Source: Marsupella aquatica (Eukaryota; Plantae; Marchantiophyta). Taken from it: DNA of 64,000 bases. A program made the position numbers and the translations under genes. The notes beneath the pieces are model-generated. The model saw only the letters and a list, made by a program, of their open reading frames with translations. It made no database searches and was not told the DNA's origin. Position 1 is the first letter of the stretch. Every line of letters starts with the position of its first letter. Shown here piece by piece: positions 1 through 52,119 of the stretch. The stretch lies in the NCBI GenBank assembly GCA_973895155.1, contig OZ316891.1, forward strand, positions 18,687,048 through 18,751,047. Reading direction: 5' to 3'.

Positions 1-1842
1 GTTACCAATCTGATTCTTAAATTGGGCTTTCCACTCCTTAAAAGTGGCAAAAATATCAGACTTGTTGTGGAGAAAGTAGATCCACACATACCTTGAGTAA
101 TCGTCTATGAACGTGATATAGTATAACCGTCCAGAGTGTGAGGGAGTAGGGGCTGGTCCCCACACATCACTATGTACATACTCAAATACCTCCTTGCTAG
201 TGTGAGTTCCAACTCCGAAGGGTTTCCTGTACTGCTTCCCAAGCATACAATGCTCACAGAAATCTAACTTCTAGACTGCAAATTAGAAATCAAACCTCTT
301 TTCAGAAGTATAGCCAAACCTTTTTCACTCATGTGACCTAGCCAAAAGTGCCACAGCCGGGCTGTTTCCTCATGAGATAAGGTTACATTGGCTTCATCAC
401 ATACTACTCTGCCCTCCAAAATATATAAATTTTTGTGCCTCTTTCCCTTCAACACAACCTTAGTACCGGTTGAAACCTGAATGACACCATTAGCAGAACT
501 CCACTGATGGCCACTTGCTTCTAACATTCCAAGTGAAATGAGATTTTTCATCATGCCAAGAATATGTCTCACATTCTGCACTGTTCTTACAACACCATCA
601 AACATTTGTAATCTCACAGATCCAAGTCCAACTACTTGGCATGGGATTCCATTTCCCATCAACACTGAACCGTTGGAAACCTTGTAAGAACTGAAAAACT
701 CTTTCCTATAGCAAATGTGAAAGGTACAAGCACTATCTAGTATCCAACCATCATCTTCCTGATGTGATACTACGTTGAGGGCAAAGTAATGGCATCATAA
801 AATGTCATCATCGAGTAAATCTACCTCATGTGCGTTGGATGCCGCATTAGCTGATGGGGTAGAGTCCTTTACTCGACAATCTCTCTTCATGTGGCCTGGC
901 TTGCCACATTTCCAACATGCGAGAGGCTTCCTCTCTTGCGATTTTCTTTTGGATTTAGATCTCCCCCATGTTGTAGATGTAAATCTGTTCTACCCATTCA
1001 TGCACTGCGCTGGTCTTCCATGATTCACGTTCAACGCAGTACCAGAAAAAGATGTTGTCTATGCTAGACCTAGCTTCTTCTGAGCATCATCAGACAATAG
1101 AGAGCTCACCACCTCATCGTACAAAATGGACTTCAGATTTCTGTACAAGAGCACTTGTTTCAAGCTAGCCTTGATAAGATGGCGGTAAGGACCTTAGCAG
1201 AAGCAAGGCCTTATCCTCATCTTCAACTCCCTTACCCAGGTTTGATAGATCCACCGCCAGGCTGTCAAACTCATCCAGGTGCTCCTGCAACTTGCTCCCT
1301 TCTTTGAGCCTGAGGCTCATCAAGAGAGACTTCTTGTACAGCCGGTTTGATGCATCTTCCCGGTAGTACTTCTCTCTGAGGGCCTTGAAGAGTGATGCAC
1401 AATCCGCATAATCATCCAGCTTCTTGATGATATGCAGCTTGAGGTAAAGCATCACCGCATTGACAACAATCACCTGCTCCTGTCTCCACTGCTTCATAGA
1501 AATATTCTCCTCTCCATCATACTGCTCTCGCATAGAGAGCAGATGATCTAAGCCCATGGCACGAAGAATACCCTTTACTTGCTTCTCCCATAGCAAGTAA
1601 TCAGTACGGCCGTCGTACTTCTCCACCTCAAACTTCACTCCTCCAAATCTTGCCATCTCTCTCTTCTTCCCAACTACCGACAGCTCTGGTAGTAGAACAA
1701 CTTCCTCCACTGCATGCCGCACCGGTGATGGTACCGGTGATACTTGTTCCTCCTCAGACTCTCCGTCTGACCATCGTGAACCTGAAGCTCCATCGACGTC
1801 GATTCTTCCAGTATTCTCCAGGGTATTCTCCAAGTCACTCAT
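1..1842 (-). mobile_element. Degenerate Ty1/copia LTR retrotransposon gag-pol (gag, zinc knuckle, protease, GAG-pre-integrase, start of integrase); continues beyond the window start
   Basis: gag KFEVEKYDGRTDYLLW...LLLLRSLPPSY (1165-1842); CWKCGKPGHMKRDC knuckle ~875-920; protease WILDSACTFH ~715-750; LWHFWLGHMSEKG; integrase VHSDVWGP...FIDDYSRYVW at 60-190. Internal stops and frameshifts. Confidence 0.95.
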
Positions 1843-1854
1843 ATGAGAAAATCA

Positions 1855-1876
1855 ATCACTATATTCATTAAAACTG
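1855..1876 (+). repeat. Left TIR (22 bp)
   Basis: Perfect inverted match to 17953-17974, with imperfect extension for ~12 more bp. Confidence 0.92.
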
Positions 1877-2324
1877 TACTTTTAAAAGTCCATAAGATGA
1901 ACCCTAAAGTTATTTTTTTTCAGGCCAAATTTCTATTAAAGCATTCCCAAAAGCTAATTTTTTTCAGCCCAAATATACACTTTTGAACGCCCAAAATTTT
2001 GTTTTTTTCACCCAAATGTTTAATAATAACTTAAATCATATATTCTAATTAATTTAAAAATTAGAGTAAATTTAATTTAGTCCAAAAATCAGAGGCCAAT
2101 ACCACTCAGACCATCTATAAATTCAAAAATATAGATGGTCATAAATCAAGGGTCAAAATGAGATTGACCCACTATATAATTATTAAATTGTCCAGTCCAG
2201 TGAGAGAGCCTCACACTAAGCATATATCCTAATTATTTACTTTATCCTACATGTTCAAAACATATCCTTTCAAGACATAATATGAATGTACAATTCAGGG
2301 TAGGCACTAGAGCAACCCTATCTC

Positions 2325-3380
2325 CTAATGATCAAGACAAAACTCATTTGAACAAGAAAGTCTGCTTCCTGATTTATCATAGCGGATGTCACGGTTGCAA
2401 GTATCTATCGCATGGTGGTTCTTAAACTTATTGGTGAGATCCCTAGTTCTGAGAACTTTCCAAATAAAATGCCTTCTATTTTGTGTATGAGGACCAGAAT
2501 AGTTGTCTCCAAGTATTACGTTTGCAGTTTCTTTGATCTCATCTGTGGCCAACGTCTCCAGTGGTGGGTAATGCTGCACCTCGTTCTTTCTGTCCCAAGG
2601 AATCTCTTCAGGAGTCACATCCAAGATGGTTCCAAACTCCCTATGGATACAACGACAATCTCCCCACTTCTGTTCCAAAAGAGCATAGATGGCAGCATGA
2701 TCCTCCTTGCTTGTTAATAAATTGAAAACAGACCACTTTGGATTGTTGACAGTGATATAATGTTGAACGCAGTAAGCCTTTCTCAATTTGCAAAGATACG
2801 GCCATAATATCTCGGGCAAAAAAGTGTCATTTGAAGTTGTGTGAGTAAATGGATTTGGAAACAATCCATTCACGTCATAATTCAAAAATGCCTTCAATGG
2901 AGAATCATCAATAAGAACTGTATTAGAAGCATCATATTTTTCTGGAAAACGGTCCCAAATGGTTTGCAAATTCTTCAGAAGTAAATTGGCCTTCCCATCT
3001 GTTATATCTGGCCTTTGGATGCAACTATCAAAGGTATCTTCTTGAGTAAAGACAAACTTGAACTTCTGTCGCTCCTCCTCAGTGAAAATCAACTCCATTA
3101 AGTCCATTGTTTTTGGCCTCCTTGCACAGGTCCAAATTGCGACGTCAAAAACCATGAAAGCTGCATATAGAAATTCGTGGAGGTATGGGCGCTCCACATA
3201 CATGAAATTAAACCCTCCACGTCTCCCCCAGTGCACACCACGTAAACTTGTCTGATTTCGCCATGGTCCTGAGCTTCTGGTCTTAATGCAATCCCAACAA
3301 ATCTTGTTAAGGTCAAGAACCAAGAGCTTTCGCCGGATCGGAGAGTGTAGTATTGGAGTGAATTCTGGAAACATTAACAT
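2325..3380 (-). CDS. FCP1/NIF-like HAD-superfamily phosphatase (transposon cargo)
   Basis: Intact 351-aa ORF; KLLVLDLN motif I, RPYLHEFL, VAIWT, LLKNLQTIW, NTVLIDDSPLK. Confidence 0.8.
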   Translation of the reverse strand: MLMFPEFTPILHSPIRRKLLVLDLNKICWDCIKTRSSGPWRNQTSLRGVHWGRRGGFNFMYVERPYLHEFLYAAFMVFDVAIWTCARRPKTMDLMELIFTEEERQKFKFVFTQEDTFDSCIQRPDITDGKANLLLKNLQTIWDRFPEKYDASNTVLIDDSPLKAFLNYDVNGLFPNPFTHTTSNDTFLPEILWPYLCKLRKAYCVQHYITVNNPKWSVFNLLTSKEDHAAIYALLEQKWGDCRCIHREFGTILDVTPEEIPWDRKNEVQHYPPLETLATDEIKETANVILGDNYSGPHTQNRRHFIWKVLRTRDLTNKFKNHHAIDTCNRDIRYDKSGSRLSCSNEFCLDH

Positions 3381-6367
3381 AAGCCCTTAGTCAATGCGAC
3401 TCAAAGTTTAAATTAGTTCGTGGACCCCCACCCTGTTTTTATTGGATTGAGATTGAAAGTGGATTGAGATTGAAAGTGGATAGTTATTGATACAAATAAA
3501 AAATGTGTTAAAAAGTAGACAGTTATTGATATAGATAAATATGTTTCCGACAATGGGTATCTTTATTGGGACTTGTCATTTATTTTTGCATGATAGAACA
3601 CATTGTTCTGAAATTGTTCAAGGGGTTCGACAGGATTGCAGCTCCTGTGAGGGAAATAGCATTGTTGGGGGCACTGGTGACTTTCGATTGGCTCAAGGGT
3701 GGGCAGACATCACCACTTACTCCTTGATTGACGTCGCCAATGCAAATCTATGTGTTTAACCACATATGTAGTACAGCATAAGAAAGTAGAAAATACAGAC
3801 GTGGCTATTGTTTGCATGGAGGAAGTGGAGACAAATAGTCCTCGTAGTTTGTCTTCGCGACACTGTTGTTTAAGACATTTTTATCGACTCAGACCCCACT
3901 CATTCCCATGTCAGTCTGGTATTCTCATTTTAGGCAACTCCAAGGTCAACTACTACTTGCCTGGTCGGTGTGTTCTTTGCGGACCAGAACTCCCCACATG
4001 AAACCAATTTCAATTAATGTATGAACCAAACGCAGCATAAACGAAATTTCTTTTATTTTAAGAAATAGTTCAGTTTGCCTGGCCTAGGAAACTTTGTGAC
4101 GGTCTAGTATCAGTACTCTGTGTCCCGGGTTGCAGTTCACCTATTGCTTCTGCCCTAGTCACTTCTTTTAAGAAAGCTTATAACAGAGACCAATTTCAAT
4201 TTTGACGAGTGTAAGAAGCGAAAAGAACATTCCCGACTCTGACAGGAGCAGTAGAGGGGGTTGATCTGGTTCCAAAAGTCCAAACTATTCAGAGGAAACT
4301 GAAGCGAATAAGCATCTCCAAAATGAAAATGGTGAGATGGCCACTGATTCCTCTATTGAAAAATCTGATAAGGTCGAGGTTTAGATTGTCTCTGCAACCG
4401 AGCAAGATAAAGCCGAAGAAGCGTGAATAATTTTGATGCCTAGAAACTACGGCCATCTCAAATAAGATTGCCCTCCCTGTTCAGAGCTTGAGCTGGATGC
4501 CCAAGAGCACAGTCAAGCCCTTAAGCAGAACAACTTGAGAACCAACATCCGAAGCACAGGCTACTCGACCAGCGCTAGGAGGTTCGTAAATTCCTAAATC
4601 CGTATAGCTATGAAGCCAAATCTGGAACATCTGATGATACCTCATAAATTCTCAATTAGAGGTCCAAGAAGCTCACGGCAGAAACCTAAAGCCTGAAACA
4701 TCTTGCGCACTGTGGAGGAACCCTCCCAGAATCTTTCAAAATCTCTCATCCATATTCGGACATAGAGTTAGTATTTGCTACTGGCTCCAGAACTCTGAAT
4801 CCTTAACGCTGACAGCGCTACGATCTCGGCTACGATCATATCCGGAAGCAACTGTCTGAGGGATCAAAAATTGAAGAAATGAAACAGAGGGGAAGCAATC
4901 TCTGGGAGCCGAAAGGAAAACATAAAGACAACCAGAAAAAGGAAGAAGCAAGGAAGAAGCAAAATGAGCGCCCGTGAAGGGCATTGGTGTCCGACATTCG
5001 ATCGAGAATCAAAAGAGAGACATCAAAATCAGAAGGATTCAGCAATGAAAGTTGACCTTGTTTGATCGAACTGCTTTTGCCTTTTTCTTCTGATCAGGTC
5101 GCTGCCTTTCCGCTCTTCTCTGCCCCAATCGTGTTTCTACAGCATTTTATATCTTCTTGTTCAATCCTTAATTTTCTCTTTAAATTTTCTGTTGTTCTCT
5201 GGATCCTCAGGGCGTTGTGTTAGTCTCTCTTTACACTTTCACTTCGCCATGGCCTCTTTTGATCTTTGTTTTGATTTCAGGTTCAAATCGCAGTCCTTCT
5301 CTTCCTGATTCGATCGTTTCGTTCTTCAGTTTCTTCTTATCAATTCTGTTTGCGATCATTGCTTTTCCTGCTTTTGGTCCTTATGAAATGAACTCTCTTC
5401 TGGTTTCTTTGTTATCGAATCTTCGATCGGGCAGCTTCTTTCTCACCTTCTCGTTTCTCTCAACATTGCGTGTGCACACATTCACCGCACCATCACCATC
5501 AAAATCAACAACGAGAATTCGTGCAGAGGTTGTGGCGCGGAGGAGCGCTCATTTTACAGTTTGGATTGCGGGCGGGATGGATTGTAGTGGACGTTAATTA
5601 CTTAACTGTTTCTAGTGACAAGTGCTTACTTTCGATTACACATTTAATTTTTTTATTACTTAATGGTTATTATTATTATTTAATGTTGTGCATTCCATTA
5701 TTTAGGGGTTGAAAAAACGGTTATTGTCTATCTCAACTTCAATACTTTGTTATCTAAAGGTAAATAATACGGTTAATTGTAAAAGAAGTTTACATGAATT
5801 TTTACGGCATGGCGTCCCTAGTTTTACCAAAATTCCGTCGCAAACACGAATGTGGGCATAATTTCATTGTGGAGACCAATTCGTTCCTGTTTGTTCCGGT
5901 TGTTGTTGACGTGGCATGCTATGGTGCCAGGAATTTTGGAAGGGACCTCTAGTGGGGTCCGTAACAATTACTACGGAAGAAAACTCTCAAAATTTGAAAT
6001 CAAACAAACTTTGTTATAGCATTTGAAGTAGAGAGGAACGACCCTGGAGTGACCCTCCTAGAAAAACATTAATTACATTCAATTGCCATTTTTTAGATCC
6101 AAAGTATACGTGGGTCAAACCCTTCCTCCATAGCAACGCTTTCCGAGGGAATGCCAACAAAATCCTTTGAGGAAGGAGATTCTACGACGGAACTTTGGTC
6201 TGTAAAAAAGTATATTATTACAAAGATAAAGCTTAGATTGTCATTAAAATACCAAGAACCAAAGAAAGGGCTAATAATTTCCAATGCTAAAATGCCCAAA
6301 TTCATCTATTGTTTGATCACCTAGAACACTCTGTATCTCGGAATTGATACCACTGGGAAGTTGCTCT

Positions 6368-9300
6368 TCAAAGGATGGGGGTGCAAAAACTGGGCTCAGT
6401 CTCAAGTTCAGTTTTTTGTAATCTGATTTTGCCATTATCTTTGGAGCATCGTCTAGTGATTCTATCATTCCAACCTTTGGTCCATTTCTCCATATAAAAT
6501 GAGTTGCAGGACGGGCTGTTTTCATATATCCAGTCCTGCCGATCTCGGATCCAGAATTTTGTGAAAATGAATACTACGGGGCTTCCTGTAGAAGCACTTG
6601 TAAAAACCAATTTAGTCTCTGATGAGCAATATAGAGGAGACAGGGGAGGATTTGAAGCACCTGCCTTCTCTTCTTCATTTGCAGCGGTCTCAGGTACTTG
6701 ACGATCATCCTCCTTTGCAAGCGCAATGTCTGACATTTCTCCCAATTCTACTGCGTCAATATTGCCTAGACCATCTGCGGTTGCCTTCCAATGTGCGTCC
6801 GATGTGGACGATGTAAGATCTGGGTCCGATTGGTGCATCCAATTCTCTACACCGACAAAGGGATTTCTTGGTGGGTCGCCCTCAGGTCGACCCACAACAT
6901 CAGCCAACCCCACACCAAAGTAGGGAATACCTACCACTTGTGTTCCACGTTCATTCAAATTTCGGGTGACCCTGTCGTCTGTGTCGTGACCCAATTCTCC
7001 TTTCTCAATATCATCTTCGCCCTGGTCTACGCCTTCTTTGGCACCAACATGCTCGGAAACCCCATCGCGGGCTCTACCAAATTTGGAACCGCCCATCCAG
7101 TCACTCATTATGGAAGGAACTTTCTTGCAGAGAACCCTTCCATATGCCTGAGTGAAATCATATTCATCCTCAGTGTCTGAATATGCAAAGCATTCTCTGA
7201 AACACAACAATGACACCTTCATAACCTGTCCTCCCGAGAAAAAGTCAAGTATAGTCTCCCCTTCAGCTGAAAAAAATTCAATAATACTCTGCAGCATACA
7301 TTTTGGCTTAGCGTGAATATTCACAAAGCCACCTCTACTTCCCACCATCTCAAACATGGGAGCCTTTCGTAAGAAATCTCCAATGTGAAATGCCGAAGTT
7401 GACTCAGTCTCTGTCTCCTTACTTGTCTTACTCTTATTCTTATCTCGCTTCTCCGTCTTGTCTTCCACTTGGAAATCAGGGTCGATCGCCGAATTGTAAG
7501 AAAATTGGCAATTAAATCCAGGCCTGAACACTTGCTTCCAATCAAATTTCTCCTCAGTGGTGATTCCTGCAAAGATTATCTCCTCCATACCACAACTGAA
7601 AAGTAAGCCCTCTGGAACTGGTGTATCACTCCATCGATAGCTCCCGTAGTCGACGTGGATGTCCATTCCCTTTTCATGTTGCAATTTCCTAAGGGCACTC
7701 AAAATGTTTGCAGCAAGTGGCCCCGGATGCACAGTCATGACAACAACAATTGTTGGATTTCTTGGAAGATCCACAATGTATTGCAGTAATGCAATAATTT
7801 CAGCATCGGTCCAAACATGTTGTCGGAGCCTACTGAAGTCAACAATGGCAAGAGGACACAAAGGCGAAGGCTCTTGTAGCATTTCCGGCACGGTCGTCTT
7901 CATCAAATTCTCACTAAAAAATGTCAAGAAAGGCTCCATGCGAGAACGACCAATCCCACCAAATTCTTTACAATACAACCCATCTAGTCTGACCATCAGA
8001 CTTTGTGGGAAACTCTCCTTGACCACATTCTTCTTCAATGAATTATTGAGGTAAACCTCACCCGCTGCTCTCCTCAATTTTGTCATCTCAAGCTCAGATT
8101 TCAAGGAAGGCAACAATATCACCAGAGACTCCCAAGATGTGCCAATAGGAAACTTCTCACGATACTTTTCCACGAAATAGCCAATAATGATTGTTCTCAA
8201 TTTGGACATTATCTTGATTGTAAGGGCCAAGTCTCCCATTGCGACAAGCTCTGATTTGTTGGTGATATCCTTCTTCAGCAAGACAAGCTCCTCTTCAACG
8301 TCCTTCAAGATCTCAATTATCTGTTTGCTACTAATCTCTCCTTCAAAGCATCGAAAGGTACCGGGAGTGATCAATTTTGGGGGTCTTGGCCCTCCATACC
8401 CACCAGCCCCGTCTTGGAGCTTCCCACTCAACCATTTTGCACACACGTTCCGCCATAATTCAAAGAGCTCATCTTTGGCAAAAAGTAACCAATAAATGCT
8501 CTTTAGGCTTGACTTCCCCATTGTAACCTTTGCCAGGGCAAACCAATCCTGCATATCCAATGGACTTGACATTAGTTTTAGTGTACAATGCATATGTTAG
8601 AAAATTTATACCTATGTTTGAAACAGGCTAAGCCGCCTCGCCCCAAGGGCGTGGCGAACCTCTACATCTAACCGCAATTGACTGAAACGGAACTAGGGAA
8701 TTATTCTTAGAGAGACTAGTCTAGGTTGCCTCGCCCTGAGGGCGAGGCAAATATTTGCTTTAATCTTCTAACCAAGGAAAACAAGAAAAGGCAGCCTCGC
8801 CCTTGGGGCGAGGCAAACCTCTACCATTGACAATCTTTAAACAAAGCGGATCAAGAATAGTTTGCGTTGCTCCAACATGTACCTGATAGTTTTTCCTGTC
8901 TGTATTTTGATTGGTCCCAACCCCTGGACGCGGCGGTTTCCCGCACTCCTCAAACTGCCTTCGTGCATGAACAATAGTCTCTAAAAAACAAGACTTAAAT
9001 TGCATAGTATCATTGACAACATTCGATAAACTTGAATGCTCAACCAAAATTGTCTTCGGAGTGAGGTCAGATAGGATCCTTGCTTTCCTATACTTTAGTT
9101 TGTTGGCAAGATCTGTCAGCTTGGCGTCAGTCTCGGCCCACCCTTGGATCCATTGGGCAGCTCTTGCAGAATGCTGGCCACTGATGGCAAGGAATTGGAT
9201 CTCATGCTTCTTCACACCAATCAAAAACTCTTTCCTATCCTGAGGTGTGTTGTCATAATGAAGCAACTGTTTAGTGCTCTCCCGATACAGAATCAAATTA

Positions 9301-11343
9301 GCAACTTGTGGTTCCTGTCCAAGGTTTTTCATCATAGACTTTGATATCTCCATTGCATGCGAAAGATTGAACATTCGATATACGAAAACGGCTGATGGCG
9401 GATTAATACTTTTTACAGGAATATCAAAAACTTCGCGGATGCCAAAAGTATAATACTGCTCAATATTACGCAAAACCTCTTGGCCTTTGAGCACATCATC
9501 TTCTTTGGGTCCTTCTGTCGGACACATATCATCCTCTGGATGCAAGACAAAGTTTGAAGTTGACCCTGACATTGGTTTTGATTTTGCAACCTTTGCCTTC
9601 TTTGTCTGCTTCTTTTGGGGGCCCTCATCATCTTCATTTTTTTAGCCATCTTCTTACGGCGTGAACTCCCAGATTGTTTCTCTTGTTGAACAACCGGCTC
9701 TTGAAGCTTTCGTTTCTTCTCTGTCTTTGATTGCGCACTTCTTTCCACTATCTTCTTTCTCTCCTTTGCCTTATGCTTGCTTCTTTTTTCTTCATCTCTG
9801 AAATCCACGTCCGGCACGCGGCCTCTTGAAACTCTGGACAAAAAATGAAACTCTTGTCGATTGCTTGCTCGTATGAAAAATGTGCCTTATCAATCATCCT
9901 TTGAACTATCCAAGTAGACGGAGGGTCCACACTGTCCGCATTGTCATGCATGTGCTTCTTTACGTAGAGAAATCCAAACACTAGGTCAACTCCACTTATT
10001 TGAGAACGCATCTTCTCAAACATCTGATCAATTGTTACTCCATCTGGGAAGAATCCCATATCAACTACACTTATCTCCAATCGAGCCATCCACTCAACAT
10101 TCAGTAAAATTGAGTAGAGTTTTATTGGCACTAGAAGTCTCATCCACTGAGATTTCTCATTGGACTCAACAATAATCGTTGCATTGCGGTTGTTGTCCAT
10201 GTTCACAAGGACGACTGGACCTAGAGTAACAATTGTCTTGCGGTCATTCAATTGACTTGTGAGGCCCTTGAAACAAATCAAGAGACTGCCTTCCGCCGAC
10301 ACCCCAACTTCTAGTGCCCATCTAAATCCTGGAGTATCTTGGTCAGGGAAAACAAAGTCCTTGATATCCTCGTCCATAATATTTAACTCCGGCTTCTCAA
10401 GATTTTTTCCTGGTAAGAAACATTGAAAAAAAATGGTCAGCATCATATTTTTAACATTGACATGTGGAAAACTTTCAAGGTGCCTCGCCCTTGGGGCGAG
10501 GCGACAAATAGAAGATTGCAAAATCTTCTTTGCTCCTAGTGCAATTAGCCCTGCCACCTCATCCAAGCAATCAAACATTATTTAGGAATGCAGACGACAT
10601 CGCCTCGCCCCAAGGGCGAGGCAACTTCTAGGAAAGCAAACAACATTTAGGAATGCAGACAACATCGCCTCGCCCCAAGGGCGAGGCAACTTCTGGAAAG
10701 CAGACAACATTTAGGAATGCAGAGGACATCGCCTCGCCCTTGGGGCGAGGCAACTTCTGGAAAGCAGACAACATTTAGGAATGCAGAGGACATCGCCTCG
10801 CCCCAAGGGCGAGGCAACTTCTGGGAAAGCAGACAACATTTAGGAATGTAGAGGACATCGCCTCGCCCCAAGGGCGAGGCAACTTCTGGGAATGCAGACT
10901 ACATTTGAGGAATGCAAACGACATCGCCTCGCCCCAAGAGCGAGGCAAAAAATAGAATATAGCTAAAGATCCTTTATTAATGTAAGATACAAGGTCCAAT
11001 ACGCCTTTGGAGCAACAAGAAATCTAGAATGAAGTAGACGTCGCCTCGACCTTGGGGCGAGGCGACTGCAAAGGAATATAGAAATTTTCCTAATAAGAAG
11101 TTTGAAATCCAAATTAAAGTAAAGTTGCCTCGCCCTTAGGGCAAGGCAAGAAGTTGAAGCAGGTGGTGCCTTACGTGGAAAAGTTAACTGGGCTTTCTTT
11201 GACGCCTCCAACGCATTGTTAACCAATTTTTGGACATCCGGGTCTTCAGGGTCATATTCATACACAGAGTTATAATTGAAGTTCAATGACTCTTGAGAAC
11301 TGGCGGAGGTGGTGGAAGCTTCAGAACTGGAGGAAGTAGACAT
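6368..11343 (-). CDS. Multi-exon cargo gene: ParB/Srx-like domain plus N4C/N6A (beta-class) DNA methyltransferase-like domain; probably disrupted by one or two frame changes
   Basis: Predicted ATG 11343; phase-consistent GT-AG introns 10410-11174 and 8549-8882; FLAISGQHSARAA (ParB/DGQHR-like); HAKPKCMLQSIIEFFSAEGETILDFFSGG...RECFAY (N6_N4_Mtase C-terminal, motif I-like). Frame changes near 9840 (possibly an intron) and the T7 run at 9637-9643. 3' end uncertain, may extend to ~6093. Confidence 0.65.
10581..10948. repeat. Tandem array, six ~64-65-bp units, each with palindrome GCCTCGCCC-NNN-GGGCGAGGC
   Basis: Units start at 10581, 10646, 10710, 10774, 10839, 10904; dispersed palindrome copies at 8635, 8728, 8794, 10482, 11043, 11127. 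Confidence 0.95.
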
Positions 11344-12508
11344 TGTAAGGGGCGAGTGAGATTTAAGATGACACGTGGCAGCAATGGAGAATGCCATAGG
11401 CTGCAAGAGGGCACTAACAGGCAAACAATGATCGAGGGAGCGACCCAAAAGGGAAGGGAGCAAGGCAGAAATAAAAGCCTTAGAGCGAGGCGGAAAACAA
11501 ATCCCAAGAGCGAGGCAAAAACAAAAGCCCTAGAGCGAGGCAAGAGGGAGGCAAGGAGTGAGGAGACGAGAGAGGAGGCAAGAGGGAGGCAAGGAAATGA
11601 GGCCTCAAGCGCAAGGCCTGCCTTCCTATACCCCCTACGAGCGAGGAGTCCGAGGAGGCAAGGATCCGAGAGGGTACGGAGGCATCAATGCGCGCCAATG
11701 ATGGAGACCCACCTCGGTGCATGTGATCGTGAGTCACCGATGGTGTGACCACTCACGACCACTCGCGACTCACCTACCAATTTTAAACTTCCGAGCTGTC
11801 AGCGGTGTGTGCTCGCAACTCACCTATCACTCGTGAGTGATTGGCTGACACCCTATCCGATGTCTACTTGTGTGCTGGGTGCGTGCCTCATCCACCCATG
11901 CCCGATCTGGTGGTGTCCACTCGTGTGCTGGGTAATGTGTGGGCTTTTTGCCTCTCAAACTGAGTATAGACCTCCCACAATCCATTTTTTGGTTCATTGT
12001 CATTTAGACAGTGATTGGTACGATCACTGACTCTCCTCTGTCCGAGTGCCTTGTTTAGGTCCGCATGGTTGAATGCAAGGTTTAGTAAGGGCACTAGTGA
12101 GCACTGTGGTGCCAAGAGTTACAATGTTGGCATCCAAGGTACCCATTTAGCTTGTACAAGGGTGGACAGAGAGATATATTGTGGAGCAGGTTAGTGATTT
12201 TATTTATTTATCTTAGAAGTACTAGCTCAACTACATCTAATTCAATACCTTTAAGCCAAACCTAGATTAAGATTTACACATTAGGTTCTAGATCATATAT
12301 TTTACTCATTCTAGACCTTTATCCACAGTCTAGCATGTGTAGAACTTACTGTACCCCTTTATGTGATTACTAACATAGTTTCTAGAAGTGGGTCGGAATT
12401 ATTTCGTGCCGACCTGACTATGTCATCTTAACTAGCATTTTAAACTGGTATATAAAAGCATAAGCAAGATAGTTTCACAAATAGTTTTGACATAATTTCA
12501 ACTTAATA

Positions 12509-12835
12509 GTTGGAGTAGGGTCGAAATAATTCCGACCCAACTTATCAATGTTTAGTCAATTAAATCATTTTAAGACATATTGTTGGAGGAGGGTCGAAAT
12601 AATTCCGACCCGACTTGTAAATGTTTAGTCAATTCAATCATTTTAAGACATATTGTTGGAAGAGGGTCAAAATAATTCCGACCCAACTTGTAAATGTTTA
12701 GTCAATTCAATCATTTCAAGACATATTGTTGGAGGAGGGTCGAAATAATTCCGACCCGACTTGTAAATGTTTAGTCAATTCAATCATTTCAAGACATAAT
12801 GTTGGAGGAGGGTCGAAATAATTCCGACCCGGCTT
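12509..12835. repeat. Tandem array, 73-bp period, five copies of quasi-palindrome GGGTCGAAATAATTCCGACCC
   Basis: Palindromes start at 12518, 12591, 12664, 12737, 12810; one inverted degenerate copy at 12390. Confidence 0.95.
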
Positions 12836-12962
12836 GAATGTATTTAGGGTTTTGAGTGATTTTACAATATTTTTTGGAGGAGAGTCCAGATTTTGAAACA
12901 TGATTGTAACATGGGGAACTTAACAATTTCTAACTTTATTTGAATACAGATAGTCCGCTATC

Positions 12963-15900
12963 ATGATCAATTTTACACGAGGGGATGAAGTGTCATTGGT
13001 GATCGATGGATTTGAAACGGCAATTGGGATAGTTCAAAAGGTTGACCCCCAGGATACTATACAGAACATTTGTCTAGGGGACAATCGAATTGGGGTATTG
13101 ATCGAAAAGTGTTTTGATGGATCGCGTCAACTTCCATTTCCTTCGCCCAAATTTTCTACATTGGCTGAGGCAATTGACTCCTGCGTGATTTGGGATTGTG
13201 CATTGGCATACTTGAGGTCATCAACTCAGCACCGAAGAATCAATGTCGATGATTTCTCTTTGGCTGGAGATGCTGGAAATGATAAATCCAAAATTGATGC
13301 AAGGGTTGAAGAGGACGTGTTCAAGGAAGGAGATGAAGTTCAGATGTTCATTTTTGATCGATCAGTTGGTTGCAAATGGAGTCGTTTTCAAGACAAATCC
13401 GATGGATATTTGTCATACTGAAACACTCGGGGTTGGTCGCATCAGTATAAGAATATCTGATATTGTTAAGGGAAATCAAAAATTGCCATACTCGCACCCT
13501 GGTGCTGATACAATAGAAGAGGCCTTGCATACCTGGGTTATCTGGGATGTTGCCCATGTTTCTAGAAAGGGCACTCTACGAGATTTTGGCGTGTTTGGTA
13601 GTTCAAATATTTTCAATGATCTTCCATTAAAAGATTTTACACTACGTTCCAACTGGATGGCGAAGGAGGTTGATTTGTATGACGCTTCTCGTTGTCGAAA
13701 GGTTGCAACAGGTGTTATCACGGTCACATTTGAAACAGGTGCCGTTGACGATGAACTTCTTGGTGCAGATCATGTTGGTGTTGCTGTTGTGAATATCAAT
13801 GAACCCGGATTATTTCCAAATATCCGTGTTGGTACCCCTGGCTTGGTGAGGTGGGAAATCAAATCCCTTCTATTGATTTCGTCTCAAAGGTTTCTTGGGG
13901 ATATCCTTGAGGAAGTTTCAGAGAAGTGGATGGAGTCGGGTCAAACTAAGGGCGATCCGGATTCAGATGGTGATGGTAAACCTACAAAAAGACCATACAA
14001 TTTCATTAGGAGGACAAAAGTTGATCTTGAGGAGAGGAAGAAAAGGCATTTGGAGTCGAGGGCACTTTTGAAAATTAACGAGGAGTCCATTGATTCCATC
14101 CAAAGAGAAGGTTGTTGCAAGCTGAAGTGTTGCTTGAACATGCCCAGGGAGGACTTAGAGGCAATGAGGAGGGAATACCATGGAATGTCAAGTGACAACA
14201 AAACAAGTCACATCTTTAGTCTCTTTGGGTGTAGAGAGGAGCAAGTCAAGAGAAAGGGATTTTTTGTTCTAAAGGGACGTGTGGTTTGTAAAGATGCATT
14301 TATTAAAATGCATGGGTTCAGTACAACAAAGTACTATGACTACAAAAATCAATACGAAGCTGGTTGCACAATTGGTTTCCATGGAAATCAGGGACAACGG
14401 AAGACACGATCAAGCACTTTGCACGCTCGCGCTTTGTTGGAGTCCATTTTAATCCAAAATGGGGAACCAATGCCACATCTTCCCTATGGTGGGTCCAACG
14501 GCACTGACACTATTGAATATCGGCTCCCATCTTGTTTTACTAAGAAGGAGATTTTCCAAGAGGTGTTTACCAAGATGGAATTAGATGGGTTTGCTAAGGT
14601 TACTGAAGTTACTATGTACAACATCTGGAAAAACTCATTTGATAATTTTGACTTTCACAAGGGAAGTGCATTTGCCAAGTGCACATTTTGCACTAAGTTC
14701 AAAGATCAATTGATGCGGGAGAAGAGAAAAAAAGAGCGTGCAGAGATTGAAGAGAAAAGAGCGCGACATCTTCGTGAACAAATGTCAAGAAGATATGTTT
14801 ACTATGCTCATAGGGTTCTTGCAAAGAAGGATCCTCAAAACTATCTTTGCATTATTCACGATAAGATGGATCAAGCCAAGACTTGGATCCCCAGGTTGGT
14901 CCCCACTCCAAAATCCCTCTCTGGTAGTGGTCAGCCTTTGCCTATTGCCCCTGGGCCCTAAGTGTTACTAATACAGGGAGGACGTGCGAACATCGCAAGG
15001 GTGTTTTTAATGTAATGCAAACTAATTTTTATAATAGTTTTTAAAGTAGGCAACATCCCTGTATATATATTCAGCACAATATTAGTAATAAGGCTCTTAT
15101 CAAATACATGTCAGATTAATCTTATGCAAGGGTACCCAAAATGCCAAGTACACATGTCACTATATGGTTGGCACACATGTCATCACTTTACTTGCGCACA
15201 TGTTCATATAGTAAATCAGATATTTAATTATTTGTCGTCATAAGGCAAGTTTGGTTTCGTGGGCTTTAGGAACACTGAGAGGATAGTGCAGCCATGCTTG
15301 TCTGTATACTACAGGAAGAACTATAATTCTCTAGTACTAATTTTGTTTAACTATATAAAATATGTACCCTAAACAAAGGCGTAACATACAAGTCCCCTAT
15401 GCAAAATAAAGTCTTATCTATTTCAGTATGATATTTGCAATTTTAAAAATTCAAGGATGTTTTCAATTCCTTGAAAAACTATATTATAATTTACAAAAGG
15501 ATAAAATTTAATAGGAAAAGTTAATATTTTTACATTAACAAGGGGATTTTTTTTGTGAACAAAAATATTAAGAAGGGGTACATGGGGGGTGTCTGTTCTC
15601 AGGGGGGTTCACTTTATATAGTAAGAGTGAGGGCCCAGGGCCTATTGCTCTTACTGGGATGTTAACCCATGGAAGAGATCCTGGAGTGTATGCACATTTC
15701 AGTTTGACTGGACTTTGGCCTAGAGATGCAGACTTTACCGTGACATCTTTGGCCAAATGCCTCCGAGATTTGGAAGATTACACAGGAGACAAAACTGGAG
15801 ACCTTCTTGAGGGATTGAATTGGAATGCAACTAGGCCAATATTTCAGTCCCTTCTAGACTTTGAAGCATTTCTGGCCGGTTACTTGGAACCCAAAAATGT

Positions 15901-17382
15901 TTCAATTGTTCGATTTCAAGGCATTGAAGATGGTCAGGAGACTAAAAAGTCAAGCACAGTGGATGTTGGTTCTAAGGATGATCCTGAGACTACTAGGGGC
16001 TCTTTCAAGCCCTTACCAAGGCACCTAACGTTGCAGATGGACAATTCAGGGAAAGATAACAAAAATCAATATGTGATGACATTTTGCACTGAGCTTGTTA
16101 GCAGGGGGTGTTTGAAACTGTGCAAATGTCATTCCTCATGGTTGGCCACACCCATGAAGACGTGGATGCATTATTTTCTCAAGTATCCAAACAGGTCAGA
16201 TACAAAGAGGTTGCTACCCTCTTGGGGTTGATGGCTGAGGTTTGGGAGTGTGAAAGCATTCATCGTGTACCACGATTGATTCAAGAGGTTGCATCTTACA
16301 AGGAGTATTCGAAAACTTTCCAGGTGAAAGAGATAGAAGGTCACTCAAAACCAGTGGCATTTCTTTTCTCCATGAGGGATAATGTGCCAGTGTATCAATA
16401 TAAAGCACATGTCAAGCAACCTTGGCTTCCGGCAATGGGGAGGTCCATTTGGAGAACTGATCCCATCACAAATGCGCTCATTTTACCGGAAGGCCAACCA
16501 TTTGCAAAACCTATATCTGGGGATGTACAAAAGAAGGCTGGAGAAATCATCCCATTCCTTAATCGCTATATTGATTTCTTGAAGAAAAGTTCTAAGGATG
16601 AGACCTCTGCAGCATATAAAGAGAGATTTCCTCTGGTCAAATATTGGGAGAATCTTGTGCAAGCACTGTCCGAGGAACTTACAATAGAAGGGGAGGGGGA
16701 AAGACATTTGCCATTGACAACTGATTTTTGGCCAAAGACTAACCATGGTACAGGTTACAAGATGATTTTGGGGACATCTCAGCCGTCAAGTGAACCTTCT
16801 CAAAATCCAGAGATGATGGACCTTCAAAATGAGTACATGGAAGAGATGGAAGATCAAGCTGCACCCTTTGTTGGTGCACGACAAGAGCGAGAACCTGCAC
16901 GTTGGATTCCTCTACAAGATATTCAAGAAGGTCACTTTGTATTTTTACGTCCAGAGGATGAATGGGAACAGGAAAATGGCAAAGGGCGTTTCTGGTTGGT
17001 TCGAGCTTTGGGTGGTGTGGATCCAAACCATGAGGTTCCCTCAACAGATTTGCAACATATTGAAGGGTCTTCTTCAACGTCTGTTGAGAGCATTTCTCTT
17101 AGGAATGCTCCTATGTTCCAAGTACAATGGTGGAGGCCTAAACATGGTAAGCATGATGCAAAGGATGATGTTCGATATGAACGTTGCTTTCAAACCACTA
17201 AGACTTGGGAGCTGGATCCTGGGTTTGACAATGTTACTCAAAGTTGGCAGTTTGCAAATTCTGCAATGTATGGGTTTAAGTCAGGTGCTAAAGAACAAAA
17301 TATTATGGATAGAGGTTTGACAATTCCTAAGAATGTTTTGAAAACTCTCAAAATTTACATGGAAGGTATAATTGATGAGTAG
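12963..17382 (+). pseudogene. Sola1-like/DUF7869-type DDD transposase, ~1238 aa when repaired
   Basis: IIHDKMDQAK, LQMDNSGKDNKN, FLMVGHTHEDVDALFS; Cys motifs CCKLKCC and KCTFC..H. Removing a GATC duplication (13356-13363) and the MITE plus one TSD copy (700 bp), and adding one G at 16104-16108, gives one 3717-bp frame. Confidence 0.85.
14949..15640. mobile_element. 692-bp non-autonomous TIR element (MITE), 8-bp TSD, inserted in the transposase
   Basis: CCTATTGC at 14941-14948 and 15641-15648; imperfect ~22-bp TIR starting CCCTGGGCCCT; AT-rich non-coding interior; removal restores PLPIALTGMLTHG. Confidence 0.93.
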
Positions 17383-17952
17383 ATTGATAGAACTCGTAGG
17401 TTACAAGTCTCCACTCAAATGACTTGTGATTAAGAGGGTCGAGTTGATTTCCATGCGTTGGTCTAAAGTGAGAGAACAAGACAATCAAATTAATACTCTA
17501 TGATCTCTCAAAGCTATTGAATGGACTTTCTTATAATTATTATTTTATTTGTCTTAGTATATTTTAATTCTAGAAAATGATGCCATTTCATTCCTTCTAG
17601 TAGGTTGGATATCATCCTAGTTAACTTTGTCTAGACACTATAGTCATTCCATTGTATTGGTGCTTAGTTAGATATCTTACTCAAGCTAAATGTTTTGAAT
17701 ATAGATGCTATCCAAGCTTATATGTTATTACTAGATTCTATCTATTTTCCAACCAAATGAACACTTTTATCACCCAAATGTTTTTTAATATCATCCAATT
17801 TAATATTTTACTTTCCCAAAATTTCATTTTTTTGTCCCCAAATTTACATTTAATGATGCTTGAATTTTCATTTTTCATCTTCCAAATTTACAATTTTCAT
17901 GCCTAAAACTATGTTTTTAAATCGCCAAATTTCCCTATATCCTTTATAATTT

Positions 17953-17974
17953 CAGTTTTAATGAATATAGTGAT
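17953..17974 (-). repeat. Right TIR (22 bp)
   Basis: CAGTTTTAATGAATATAGTGAT is the reverse complement of the left TIR. Confidence 0.92.
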
Positions 17975-19350
17975 ATCACAAAAATTTGTCTTTTCTCAAA
18001 ACTTCTCATAAAACTCAGAACTCAACACCGCCGCGTAGCCCACGTAGCTAGGAGTCCAAAACTGAAAACAAAATTGAAAATAAACTTTGACAAAAAAGTT
18101 ATTCAGATTTCGGTCGGTGTGGGTAAAACCATGGAAAACTCCCTCGTTTTGACCACCTCCAAGAATCTCCGAAATGTGAATGGGCAATCGATGTCAAAAT
18201 TGCCAATGGAGTGCTGTACCGCATAGCTAACTCGAATAGCTACCACCTTTCCGAAAACAACTAGAAAAAGTTACCATTTTCTGGTACGAATTTTTGTCGT
18301 ACGGCCGAAAACACGCTCTCTGGTTTTTGAGAGTATTCTCCGCGCAGTACAGCAGGGCTCACAGGGGGCTGTTCCCCCTGTCGAAGCGGTTAAAACGGAG
18401 GGTCACAAGGCCTGGGATGCGGCACAACCAATGAGGAGGAGAGAAAAAAATGAGAAAAAAAGGCACTTTAAAGGGGTCTTAAAGCCCCTGGAAAAAATGC
18501 GCAAATTCGCGCGTATTCGTGGCCAAAAACGCGTATAAAGGCCAAAAAAAGGGTTTAAATGCACGTATTTTTGTGTATTCGGGCCGTACAAGGGCATTTT
18601 TTGCCGTATTTGCGCCAAAAAATGCACGTTTTCGCGCTTAAAGGGGTGTGGGGGGCCGGGGCGTATGGCGAAGCTGGTTTGTCGGGGTGTGAAGGTATAC
18701 GGGCCGTATGGGGGCAAAACAATGCCCTAAACTAACCTAAAAATGTGCCAAAAAATGACACAAAGGTCGTGTTACAAATCTCAGCCGCCTCCGCTTCGGT
18801 TTCCAATGAGAAAAGTGATGACCGCCGACATGAAAATGTTGTCAAATTGCACCGACACGTTTGCAGCTCCACCAGAGAAGAAAACCTCCGCCGCGTCACA
18901 CTCTCTCCGCGTCAAGAGCCTACCCCAAACTCAAAACAATCACCTTACCACGATCTCTCTGTTGAGCCTCAGCACTTCAAGTTTCCTCCATCGAATTGAA
19001 CGCAACGATGAGAAACCTCGTTCAGGCAAAAACAAACTCCATAGCTTGCCAAAAAACCAGAAAACAACTTTCACTCGTCATGAATCACTTGGTCCACGTT
19101 CAGGAGCAAGTCAGTTACCGAAATGATCAGCTCGTCTCAATCTACAAGTGGAGCAACACCATGTGACGCCTCGTGCACCGCAAAGCTCACACCAACGAGA
19201 AAACGAACTCTGGTCCCTCCACCAAAAAACCGTCGAACACGAAACTCCACGAAAAAATGATTTCCCCGATCACTTCTCACTCATAAATCCGATCGATGAT
19301 TTCTAACCGCCATTAGAAAGCCCTCACAACGATCTATCCGATGAGTCCCC
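17975..19350 (-). mobile_element. Probable 5' leader region of the interrupted copia element
   Basis: Contiguous with the gag ATG once the TSD-bounded insertion is removed; non-coding with GC-rich patches. No LTR or PBS identified, so the far boundary is a guess. Confidence 0.4.
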
Positions 19351-26936: not shown

Positions 26937-27726
26937 GTTTGAGATGAGCTCAGGGTTGGATCTCACAGCTCTAAATCTTAGAACTAAGGCGCTTTAAATT
27001 TCAAGGTGCTTAAGCAAGATTGAGACAGGACTCAAGATTCCGTTGAGTTCAGTCCGTAGGTTTGTGTGTGTTTGTGCTTCTGAGTGAAATCCCACCCTTC
27101 TTCTATGAGAATGAACTAGACTGAAACAGGCACATTAGTTAAGAATGCTGAGATTGGAACTGTGATTCTCTACAGCTTATTTTAATTCAAACAGTTTACA
27201 GAGTTATGTCTCTCGCCTTCAGCTAACTCCCTTACCACTTTCAGGGCACCTTCGATACATGTGTCGTGTCACCCACTTCTAGAGAAGTATTATTTTTTAT
27301 TTTTTAAATATATTTTAAAAGATGGGCAGAGGCCAGCGATAGAGTAGTTGATTTTACGAGTATATTGGTGCTCCTTCCTTGATCCTGAGACGGCCTGTTT
27401 TGGGTAGCACGAAGGTACTTTTGTTCTTAGCTCAGAATTTGAAGTGATACAGGTCGAACTTTCTACGGTCGCTTCTAGGGTCGGAGTGTCGTGTCATAGC
27501 TTCTGAGGTATATCTGCCCGAGGAAATAGAAATCGGTGGCATTACCTGCGGTTTAAGTGAAGAAGCGAAGCAGACCTTTCAGCATCGGTGTATCCCCAGC
27601 AAGACGTGTGCCACTTGTAAGCATTAACGATTCGGAGTCCGTGATCAGGAGGTGTGAACTCGGGGTCCTGCCTGGAAGGCTTTCGGCAGTAGGTCTTCGC
27701 TGAAGGGTTTCAATTCGGTAGAAATA

Positions 27727-28917
27727 ATGGGAGGTATTGAAGGCAGCAGCACCTGTGGCCACCTGCTGGATCCAAGCACACTCGACCCATTCGCTTTGGA
27801 TGAGCTCAAGAGACGTGGGCCGAAGTATGGTATAACTTTACCGCTGAATTACGCTTCTTCCATACTTTCCCGTTTAGGGGAGAAAGAGCTCGAGAGCTAC
27901 AAGGTATCGTCCCTGGGTTACAATAATCGCATCTACTTTGTGAGAGCCAAATCAGGTGCTGAATATGTGATCAAGATATGCGGGCGGTACTGGAAGAGAG
28001 TCAAGACCGAGACAGAGGTTGTGGGTCTCTTCCTTGCCAGCACACTGTCGTCCGTCCCTGCGCCAAGGATTCTGGCGTGGGATTCTAAGGGAGAGGAATT
28101 CGGTGTGGAATACACCGTGATGAGGAAGCTCGAAGGCGTACGACTAGAGGATGTGTGGAATGATATGTCCTTCGACAAGAGGTGGAGTGTAGTGGGCCAG
28201 CTTGCTGAACTTGTTGTCTCGTACAGGTCTCAGACGGGACGCTTAGCAGCCTCTATGCCGGAAGGCAAGATTGGCAATTTCGTGATTCGCGGAGGAGATG
28301 GATGCCGATTAGGGGAGATGGAGTCTGTGGATTTTGAAGTTGGACCTACTTTGGAAGGGCTGGGGCCATGGTCGAGCTATACAGCTTATCTGAAATCGCA
28401 ACTTGAAGTGAAAATTGAGAGTGTGCGGAAAGATCCGAGGATGGAAGCTATGAAGGTCTTGCTGCCGATAGTGGAGGCTCTCTTGGAAACTCTGGATACA
28501 GGGGAAGAGATCCCAGATTCGCGGCAGTTCGTATTCACTCATGGGGACCTCAATATTCAAAACCTGCTTATCACTTTCATCGACGATCTTCCCAAGATCA
28601 CTGCTGTATTGGATTGGGAGTGGTCAGGTATGTTCCCAGCAGAAGAGGAGTTTTTTTGCTCGTTTGAATTCATTCTCGACAATTCAGGAGACGGCACCAA
28701 CGAGCGTGACCAACTGCAAGCGCACTTTTTTGACATCCTCGAAGATGGAGGTGCAGACACACCTCGCACTCTGCCGTACTACTGGCAGCGTAAGTACCTC
28801 TATGATCTGAGAGAAAACCTCTTCCCATGGCACATTCGAGATTGCGACGATGTTGACAAAACTATCGAGCAGGCTGTAGTAGACGTGCAGCAACTCCTTC
28901 GGAATTTGAGGACTTAG
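27727..28917 (+). CDS. Aminoglycoside phosphotransferase (APH)/choline-kinase-like protein, intronless
   Basis: GYNNRIY, YVIK, VPAPRILAWD, FTHGDLNIQNLLI, ITAVLDWEWSG. Confidence 0.88.
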   Translation: MGGIEGSSTCGHLLDPSTLDPFALDELKRRGPKYGITLPLNYASSILSRLGEKELESYKVSSLGYNNRIYFVRAKSGAEYVIKICGRYWKRVKTETEVVGLFLASTLSSVPAPRILAWDSKGEEFGVEYTVMRKLEGVRLEDVWNDMSFDKRWSVVGQLAELVVSYRSQTGRLAASMPEGKIGNFVIRGGDGCRLGEMESVDFEVGPTLEGLGPWSSYTAYLKSQLEVKIESVRKDPRMEAMKVLLPIVEALLETLDTGEEIPDSRQFVFTHGDLNIQNLLITFIDDLPKITAVLDWEWSGMFPAEEEFFCSFEFILDNSGDGTNERDQLQAHFFDILEDGGADTPRTLPYYWQRKYLYDLRENLFPWHIRDCDDVDKTIEQAVVDVQQLLRNLRT

Positions 28918-50774: not shown

Positions 50775-51965
50775 TTACGCAGAGCTTTGGGCAGGTGACT
50801 TGAGGAGGGCTTTCAGCATCGCCATAGCTCCCACCAAGTTCACTGCTCCGACCAGAAGAAGAGGAGTAGGAACGGCACCCGTCAGAACGAGCCACGAAAA
50901 GCTCAAGAACAGGAAGGTTCGCCCCACTACTGTCGAGAGGTAGAAAGCCTCTGCTCCATTCATGCCTCTCATGTCGCCAACAGCTGTGCCAATATAATAC
51001 ACGCCGAAGACTACTGCCAAAATTGCTCCAATTCGAACCCATCCCAGTTTCACACCTTCCAGGTCGAATAGAACCCCAAATAAGACCCTAGGGAACCCTA
51101 GCAAGGCAATGCCTGCAACCGAGATGTAGATCCCCGTGATCAGCGCAACTGTGGCAGGTCTTTTATTTCTATGACCCTCAGTTTGAGGAAACTGGGCATC
51201 AGGAGACATTCCTCCACTACTCAGAATTACACGCTGCTTTTCTACTGCTTCCTTAACTGCTGGGAAGATCTTAATGCTGCCATCAGTTGCGAGAGCAGCC
51301 ATTTTGGGAACACGGGTGTGGTCGTCCTCTGGACAAGAGAGTAGACTGTCACAGATTCGAATTTCTTTGAACTCCATGGATGTGGCGAAAATCCTTGACG
51401 TGGCATCTCCTGCTCTCCCTGCTTGAACGTGCCCTTGAAGGCGGCCCAGTATGACCACATCCCCATCAGCTACCACTTGAGCTCCGGGCTCGACATCTCC
51501 AAGGATTATGATGGTGCCTGCATTCTCTAGAACCTCTCCGCTGTGGATTGTTCTCTTCAAGTACAAGCAGTTTGATTTGCTTCCCCCGTCCACCCCTCCG
51601 ACTGCTTCTTCAGCTGTTTCTCCTGCTCCTGATCTGATCCGAGATCTCCTCGTACTTGTGCTGCAGCTGACGTTCTCCCTCAAACCGGGGGGCTGTAGTG
51701 TCGGAAGAGGTCTGGATGCGAATGCGCATTGGGCTCTTTCCTTGCCATGTGAATGTAGAAAGCCAATTGGGCGTGAGAAACGGGCTCGCTGGGAGAATTC
51801 CTGGCGGGTGGAGCAAGTCGGTGGTGAACTGAGCAGAAAACTTGATGATCGTAGTTCGGAAGGAGTAACAGCTGCGAGTGGAGATTGTCTGGAGGTTTTG
51901 GAACGCCTTGATGTTTTCGATAAACCTCCACTGAGGCAACAATCATAGACGTTTGTGACAGACAT
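50775..51965 (-). CDS. MinC C-terminal-domain protein with putative plastid transit peptide and C-terminal multi-TM domain, intronless
   Basis: LYLKRTIHSGEVLENAGTIIILGDVEPGAQVVADGDVVILGRLQGHVQAG..GDATSRIFA matches the MinC_C beta-helix pattern; Ser/Arg-rich N-terminus; ~4 hydrophobic helices. First in-frame ATG at 51965. Confidence 0.82.
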   Translation of the reverse strand: MSVTNVYDCCLSGGLSKTSRRSKTSRQSPLAAVTPSELRSSSFLLSSPPTCSTRQEFSQRARFSRPIGFLHSHGKERAQCAFASRPLPTLQPPGLRENVSCSTSTRRSRIRSGAGETAEEAVGGVDGGSKSNCLYLKRTIHSGEVLENAGTIIILGDVEPGAQVVADGDVVILGRLQGHVQAGRAGDATSRIFATSMEFKEIRICDSLLSCPEDDHTRVPKMAALATDGSIKIFPAVKEAVEKQRVILSSGGMSPDAQFPQTEGHRNKRPATVALITGIYISVAGIALLGFPRVLFGVLFDLEGVKLGWVRIGAILAVVFGVYYIGTAVGDMRGMNGAEAFYLSTVVGRTFLFLSFSWLVLTGAVPTPLLLVGAVNLVGAMAMLKALLKSPAQSSA

Positions 51966-52119
51966 TGCATCAGAAGGGAACACTCGTGCAACTCTAAAGA
52001 GACTAGACTCCAAACGATCACGCTTCCTTGCACATCATGGTCCTGAATGAACCTTCCATTGTATATTGCACTACCAAAGGACAGAATTCTCCTAATACCT
52101 CTGGAAGTTCTCTCTTTGG

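Follow-up and report, generated by a model that had tools for sequence, protein, structure and literature searches.

Fusions of a ParB part to a methyltransferase (MTase) of the N6N4 type are enriched in phages and prophages, and most eukaryotic proteins of the ParB/sulfiredoxin (Srx) superfamily are sulfiredoxins (PMC12704722). Related cases include ParB-fold activators of phage DNA-modifying enzymes (PMC13229309), a haptophyte MTase clade from ParB-terminase loci, a ParB-helix-turn-helix (HTH)-fused Dam family and the inactive DIRS1 MTases; few N6A-MTases are reported for land plants (PMC4738411). Among plant transposon proteins, VANC21 binds non-coding arrays of its own element, introns included, and reduces methylation (PMC5735166). 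This report describes a gene predicted to combine a ParB/Srx fold with a beta-class amino-MTase fold, located inside a CACTA-ended transposon of the liverwort Marsupella aquatica (assembly GCA_973895155.1, contig OZ316891.1, positions 18,687,048 to 18,751,047 of the forward strand; this stretch of 64,000 nucleotides is the window). The family to which the gene belongs is a transposon accessory protein of phage-type architecture, with a function that is proposed here by inference.

The family is real, well defined and apparently undescribed. No description was found in the literature searched, outside Repbase Reports and the figure of PMC8245031 that shows Lanisha (moss, MT647524), either of which may mention the gene; PMC8245031 and its preprint name Lanisha.

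Organization of the Gene

The gene runs on the minus strand from 11343 to 6271, with three exons (11343-11175, 10409-8883, and 8548-6271) and a product of about 1,325 amino acids (aa). Its parts are:

11175..11343, minus strand: predicted exon 1, with the ATG at 11343; the least certain exon
10410..11174, minus strand: intron 1, 765 nt, GT-AG, with nine palindromes, most of them in a 64-65-bp tandem array
8883..10409, minus strand: exon 2, with an N-terminal domain (about 9781-10407), a lysine-rich linker with two frameshifts and the ParB/Srx domain
9003..9434, minus strand: predicted ParB/Srx fold, with box II SGQHS at 9168-9182, lacking the arginine
8549..8882, minus strand: intron 2, 334 nt, GT-AG, phase 0, with three palindromes GCCTCGCCC-N3-GGGCGAGGC
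6271..8548, minus strand: exon 3, with the helical domain, MTase fold, acidic linker and C-terminal domain, and a 2-nt deletion near 6569
7949..8548, minus strand: conserved all-helical domain of about 200 aa, a candidate DNA-binding region with no clear fold match
7091..7936, minus strand: predicted beta-class amino-MTase fold, with motif IV DFSR at 7829-7840 and motif I DFFSGG at 7229-7246
6271..6658, minus strand: conserved C-terminal domain, split by a frameshift, located by tblastn of homologues into frame -2; no Pfam match

A preliminary description of this DNA had pointed to two motif stretches, and both are real: they lie on the minus strand in the open reading frames (ORFs) 8760-9641 (IPVKSI...YRMFNLSHAMEISKSM...ISGQHSARAA) and 6368-8596 (KPKCMLQSIIEFFSAEGETILDFFSGG...RECFAY). 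The gene end that it placed at 6368 has to be moved, as tblastn puts the true C-terminus in another frame, which ends at 6271. The N-terminal, helical, and C-terminal domains, the absence of the box-II arginine and three frameshifts are additions to that description. In Calypogeia, the model P0023 is extended at its N-terminus by a length similar to that of the predicted exon 1.

To judge from homologues, the ParB-MTase fusion is one gene. A homologue with 33% identity (L001) has a canonical intron, about 110 nt long, that matches intron 2 in position and phase; in another (P0180) the ParB motif, the helical domain, the MTase fold and the C-terminal domain stand in a single 1,009-aa ORF; and eight further proteins match the profile of the ParB part as well as that of the MTase. 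On these grounds two separate genes were rejected, and the single transcript that had been proposed is supported. Extra small introns in the linker were likewise rejected, since homologues read straight through.

Predicted Folds and Dimer

The exon-2 model (predicted local distance difference test score, pLDDT, 68.5) matches Noc, ParB, PadC, SerK, and sulfiredoxin with Foldseek E-values from 9.6e-4 (Noc) to 0.4, and the first 27 Foldseek matches listed for it are of ParB/Noc/Srx/SbnI/KorB type. When the Foldseek matches were re-scored with VIA (Z 8.1, root-mean-square deviation (rmsd) 2.7, 94 aligned), the first 29 rows all belonged to the ParB/Srx superfamily; the call rests on this agreement, because a Z of 8 alone is modest. 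Exon 2 is predicted on this basis to hold a ParB/Srx fold. Sequence searches of Pfam, PHROGs, NCBIfam, and PDB gave no match for this part.

Exon 3 is predicted to hold a beta-class amino-MTase fold. Its model (mean pLDDT 55.6, the ordered part mostly 70-90) matches CcrM (Foldseek E 7.8e-8; VIA Z 16.3, rmsd 4.2, 211 aligned) as well as PvuII and rotifer N4CMT (Z 14), and shows a permuted Rossmann fold in which motif IV precedes motif I, as in PF01555. The Pfam family N6_N4_Mtase is matched weakly and under the cut-off by the window sequence (E 0.0032) and by 9/9 homologues (E 1e-6 to 1e-3), one of the nine being over the cut-off. Both models agree with the ParB-like and N4C/N6A-MTase-like domains of the preliminary description. 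In the family member P0139 a weak SH3_2 match (E 2e-4) lies behind the MTase fold.

The MTase domain is also predicted to dimerise: the dimer model scored 0.43, against 0.00 for the best control, with contacts agreeing in 87% and a pLDDT of at least 63. Among solved pairs, 21 of 30 attained the mark used, and among single chains none of 23, in a calibration set without ligand.

Loss of Catalytic Motifs

In the members aligned, catalytic motifs are lost family-wide in both domains. At motif IV, (D/N/S)PP(Y/F/W) occurs in 0 of 53 aligned rows, some of them near-duplicates, and the pattern [DNS]PP[YFW] in 0 of 179 family proteins; the rows read D-F/L/V/A/T-x-x, with D in 49/53. The motif-IV position follows from the order of the strands and the ranges of the alignments. 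It falls on AIVDFSR, the best candidate of the earlier reader, who had likewise seen no DPPY or SPPY and had suggested looking for paralogs that keep (D/S/N)PP(Y/F), of which there are none among the 53 rows. Compared with phage MTases, in which D-PY/PPY, GxG, and G-x-E are invariant (8/8 of the comparison set), motif I has lost one residue and S, A, or V stands in place of the motif-II glutamate. KP and DFFSGG are conserved, an acidic residue often stands one place after the motif-II position, and conservation peaks in the C-terminal half of the fold (0.65); divergent members show further degradation of motif I (ELYCRG, DAYSGG). In the ParB part the arginine of the box-II GxxR, which is required for NTP binding (PMC12704722), is a serine (SGQHS) in 9/9 homologues and in further members.

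In related active enzymes the motif matters: a change of SPPY to APPA abolishes N4CMT activity (PMC8885841), and DN4MT1 carries TSPPY (bioRxiv 2021.02.12.428880). The parallel that the preliminary description drew to rotifer N4CMT and Marchantia DN4MT1 holds for fold and likely origin but not for activity. Self-marking by N4-methylcytosine (4mC) or N6-methyladenine (6mA) appears unlikely, because no member keeps the MTase catalytic motif and the box-II arginine is lost too. Of the "divergent or inactive" fold suggested earlier, the inactive form, with DNA binding or anti-silencing, fits; a divergent but active, self-marking enzyme is disfavored by the 0/53 count, the motif-I deletion and the replaced motif-II glutamate.

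Family and Selection

HMMER recovered 237 family clusters at E 0.001 and 147 at 1e-10. Twelve of the 20 clusters that were looked up have species names (ten Riccia sorocarpa, one Calypogeia fissa, and one Ceratopteris richardii), and the earlier homologue matches are C. fissa. By these assignments, the family occurs on transposons of a fern and of liverworts from both main classes. No homologue longer than 1,578 aa was found, a pattern search found no relatives in prokaryotic genomes, none were found in viral contigs except for a type III Mod motif-I match, and none in phages beyond the motif-I region.

Variants of the MTase domain comprise 24 synonymous, 16 non-synonymous, and 0 stop changes (the 40 listed of 47), a ratio of non-synonymous to synonymous polymorphism (pN/pS) of 0.25 (p 1e-5). 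On these counts the domain is under purifying selection, with pN/pS about 0.25. Because this ratio is found despite the lost catalytic signatures, the fold is, as far as the variants indicate, kept for a non-catalytic job.

The Transposon and Its Copies

The gene sits inside a 16.1-kb transposon (1857-17972) with perfect 20-bp CACTA terminal inverted repeats (TIRs; 20/20). Its plus strand carries a DUF7869 transposase, its minus strand a NIF phosphatase gene and the ParB-MTase-like gene:

1857..1876, plus strand: left TIR, 20 bp, starting with CACTA, AT directly before it
17953..17972, minus strand: right TIR, 20/20 identical to the left, AT directly after it
2325..3386, minus strand: NIF/FCP1-like haloacid dehalogenase (HAD) phosphatase gene, PF03031 E 9e-17, with motif DLNKI in place of DxDxT
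3411..5962, strand not assigned: nested insertion of 2.55 kb, likely a long terminal repeat (LTR) remnant; joint 3410-5963 in 4/4 runs
12954..17382, plus strand: DUF7869 transposase, PF25273 E 3e-20 and 4e-15, with frameshifts near 13356 and 16129
14949..15640, strand not assigned: high-copy insertion of 0.7 kb resembling a miniature inverted-repeat transposable element (MITE), 11-bp TIR, 8-bp duplication, disrupting the transposase

The TIRs at 1857 and 17972, the transposase and element-free flank joints (1852-17990 and 1854-17999, in contigs of runs X2 and X3) bear out the earlier claim that the gene is transposon-borne. A copia gag-pol remnant lies directly 3' of the element. The CACTA...TAGTG ends, TIRs under 50 bp and size over 10 kb are those of plant-type CACTA/EnSpm elements. 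The target duplication, a 2-bp AT judged from one copy (the 3-bp flanks, AAT/ATA, mismatch), departs from the 3-bp rule for plant CACTA/EnSpm and from the 4-bp rule for Sola (PMC10741241), and the ends agree with the CMCT clade, for which CA..TG and a 2-5-bp duplication are given (PMC12730594). [quoted passage not shown] Its DN...NKN and GH motifs resemble, we presume, those of Sola. At the transposase N-terminus (12954-13850) a 70-aa domain is repeated in tandem, in two or three copies that are 37% identical; it has no Pfam match, and we take it to recall TNP1/En-Spm-type domains.

The element may carry two pseudo-enzyme genes, because its NIF/HAD phosphatase reads DLNKI and not the canonical DxDxT. 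In 3 of the 16 homologue gene models scanned, NIF comes after the MTase-like part; the gene pair is therefore old, and this pair recurs in Riccia models.

In run X1, depth is about 430-800 over all parts of the element other than its nested pieces and the 3' half of the transposase, a figure which is not a copy number; contigs longer than 1 kb differ by about 1%, which suggests a young multicopy family. The nested insertion and the MITE, which joints skip in 4/4 runs, are missing from most sister copies. In the window copy the gene has frameshifts near 9776, 9638, and 6569, recognized because homologues read exon 2 in one frame and the C-terminus in another frame to 6271. Among the indels listed, other copies restore the frame by +T at 9776 (474/474 depth in X1, 4/4 runs), +AT at 6569 (4/4 runs) and +C at 9638 (X2 only), and the transposase near 13356 by -4. 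The window copy is disabled by the transposase MITE and the frameshifts; most sister copies lack the insertions, and three of the breaks are restored in other copies. That all frameshifts are assembly errors was rejected, because neither the 2-nt deletion nor a 4-nt duplication is a homopolymer slip; two breaks in A-runs could be such slips.

Over 1500-18500 most differences from sister copies are A>G and T>C. At these sites the window copy has A/T and the other copies G/C, the pattern that decay under cytosine methylation would leave. Regional CpG ratios, 0.31 to 0.97, are too noisy for use. An LTR-like end occurs in two diverged copies (76% match), at 5789-5967, nested in the element, and at 58088-58267. 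Elsewhere in the window, 27658-28917 is an intronless 419-aa ORF with motifs HGDL and DWE. It is presumably kinase-like, of aminoglycoside-phosphotransferase type, and possibly a horizontally acquired gene; the C-terminal segment of ORF 50775-52034 we take to be MinC-like, and the fungal-looking ORFs at 60808-62127 to be of a membrane-bound acyltransferase type.

Palindromes as Candidate Sites

Twelve palindromes of 21 bp, GCCTCGCCC-N3-GGGCGAGGC, lie in the gene, nine in intron 1 and three in intron 2. Of the 29 half-site matches in the 64 kb, 27 fall in the two introns or just upstream and none in exons, and the CpG of the palindrome half-sites is intact in 23/24. As in VANC-type systems, the element has repeat arrays in its non-coding parts, and both arrays are internal rather than subterminal. 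Two groups of repeats lie outside the gene:

11483..11541, strand not assigned: three palindrome half-sites upstream of the gene, spaced 25 bp
12392..12870, strand not assigned: second array, between the divergent genes, of 73-bp tandem repeats, each holding an imperfect palindrome of different sequence

Proposed Function and Alternatives

The preferred reading, for which the chances seem evenly poised, is that the protein is a double pseudo-enzyme acting as a non-catalytic dimer that would bind the palindrome arrays of its own element and protect it from host silencing. The family would descend from a phage-type ParB-MTase fusion. Around the predicted folds and predicted dimer, we infer the remaining steps: the helical domain and the MTase scaffold would contact the DNA, loading would take place at the palindromes, perhaps followed by ParB-like spreading, and the host 5-methylcytosine (5mC) machinery would be kept off the element in the manner of VANC or TnpA. 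A bolder form, considered unlikely, makes the protein a parS/ParB-like clamp rebuilt from a phage ParB-methylase, which would load on the intron arrays and spread, its dead fold flipping or shielding cytosines from silencing; it would then share a wider class with the Starship DUF3723 proteins, that of ParB-fold accessories carried by large transposons of eukaryotes.

Several observations weigh against the anti-silencing dimer. Loss of the box-II arginine weakens any cytidine triphosphate (CTP)-clamp model, and the helical domain, modeled within exon 3, yielded no identifiable HTH (best Z 5.2, an unrelated protein). The dimer pass may stem from likeness to, or memory of, solved beta-class dimers, with ligand-free calibration; the profile-profile alignment of the motif-IV half is of low confidence and slipped to another strand; and many of the 40 variants (of 47) behind pN/pS are private to the window copy. 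A prokaryotic origin is argued from the fold only, because no prokaryotic sister group was found. Intron 2 of L001 (about 110 nt), the sole homologous intron seen, has no palindrome array. The arrays also fold strongly as RNA (intron 1 z -14.9), so that their action, or just their origin, may lie at a different level.

Such hairpins would also suit a gene that acts on RNA or as a selfish toxin or drive factor, the palindromes being unrelated hairpin debris, and ParB/Srx folds have many uses; yet catalytic signatures are lost in both domains and there is no sign of an antidote, which makes this very improbable. A transposition cofactor, whose dimer at internal or subterminal sites aids synapsis, excision, or target choice and leaves silencing unaffected, would accord with a constant cargo inside the TIRs, of about equal depth in run X1, with the predicted MTase-domain dimer, with TnpA as the second DNA-binding protein of CACTA elements, and with the resemblance of the ParB part to fungal DUF3723 proteins, conserved Starship accessories. 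The arrays, however, are internal, and retention of a methylase fold is left unexplained; such a role is rather unlikely.

An active MTase with a non-canonical D-F-x-R site, placing 4mC or 6mA marks on the element, could be read into the motif-IV aspartate of 49/53 rows, the nearly invariant DFFSGG and the conserved C-terminal half (0.65), but PP(Y/F/W) in 0/53 rows, the missing motif-I residue, the replaced motif-II glutamate and the further loss of motif I in divergent members (ELYCRG, DAYSGG) make it quite improbable. Somewhat more doubtful still is a METTL14-like scaffold or decoy that pairs with an active host amino-MTase (e.g., DN4MT1) to steer or block it, or that reads modified bases. 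Beta-fold pseudo-enzymes do act as partners, as METTL14 does (PMC4738411), a beta-class 4mC enzyme exists in liverworts (bioRxiv 2021.02.12.428880) and a dimer interface is predicted; however, no partner is known, a homodimer model suffices and one family member is from a fern.

Comparison with Known Systems

The gene brings both folds together as pseudo-enzymes under selection on liverwort and fern transposons. For a transformable plant group it supplies a putative anti-silencing or DNA-loading system that can be tested and may be sequence-specific, with candidate sites adjoining the gene. It also advises caution, as PF01555 matches in bryophyte genomes should not be read as 4mC writers.

ParB-N6_N4_Mtase fusions, common in phages as the preliminary description had stated (PMC12704722; ParB-terminase loci, PMC4738411), likewise travel on a mobile element with ParB/Srx placed N-terminal to the beta-class amino-MTase fold, but the liverwort-type gene is eukaryotic, spliced, about 1,300 aa long and has three extra domains, motif IV and the box-II arginine are lost, and no close phage relative was found. 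With CcrM, MboIIA, RsrI, PvuII, rotifer N4CMT, and Marchantia DN4MT1a/b the family has in common the fold, the motif order IV...I and a predicted dimer; unlike them it lacks (D/S/N)PP(Y/F), is transposon-borne and is not a host weapon against transposons. The known eukaryotic beta-class DNA MTases are, to our knowledge, host enzymes. N4CMT and DN4MT1 have a chromodomain or no extra domain, in contrast to the ParB fusion of the family. VANC of VANDAL (Mutator) and TnpA of En/Spm are likewise accessories of plant TIR transposons with arrays in introns or intergenic parts, whereas the family has bacterial-type folds and, as judged from the lack of a Pfam match, no visible sequence kinship with them. 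Fungal TET/JBP (PMC12730594) and the DIRS1 N6A-MTase (PMC4738411) are also DNA-modification folds carried as transposon cargo, the DIRS1 domain too being judged inactive, but the MTase class, the element class and the ParB fusion differ.

The element has CA..TG ends, a short TIR, a 2-5-bp duplication and large size in common with the CMCT clade (EnSpm/CACTA, ESTA, Plavaka, and Lanisha), but differs from plant-type CACTA in its 2-bp, not 3-bp, duplication and in a transposase that matches DUF7869 only. By language-model features, which give a lead and no alignment, the ParB part is like Starship DUF3723 (0.95, 179-184/256 shared) and, again as a lead only, resembles clusters of fungal hypothetical proteins. 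DUF3723 proteins are Starship accessories without an assigned function (bioRxiv 2021.12.13.472469, 2025.02.28.640899), so that the family gives a lead on the role of these proteins; both are accessory genes of large elements, but Starships are fungal tyrosine-recombinase elements.

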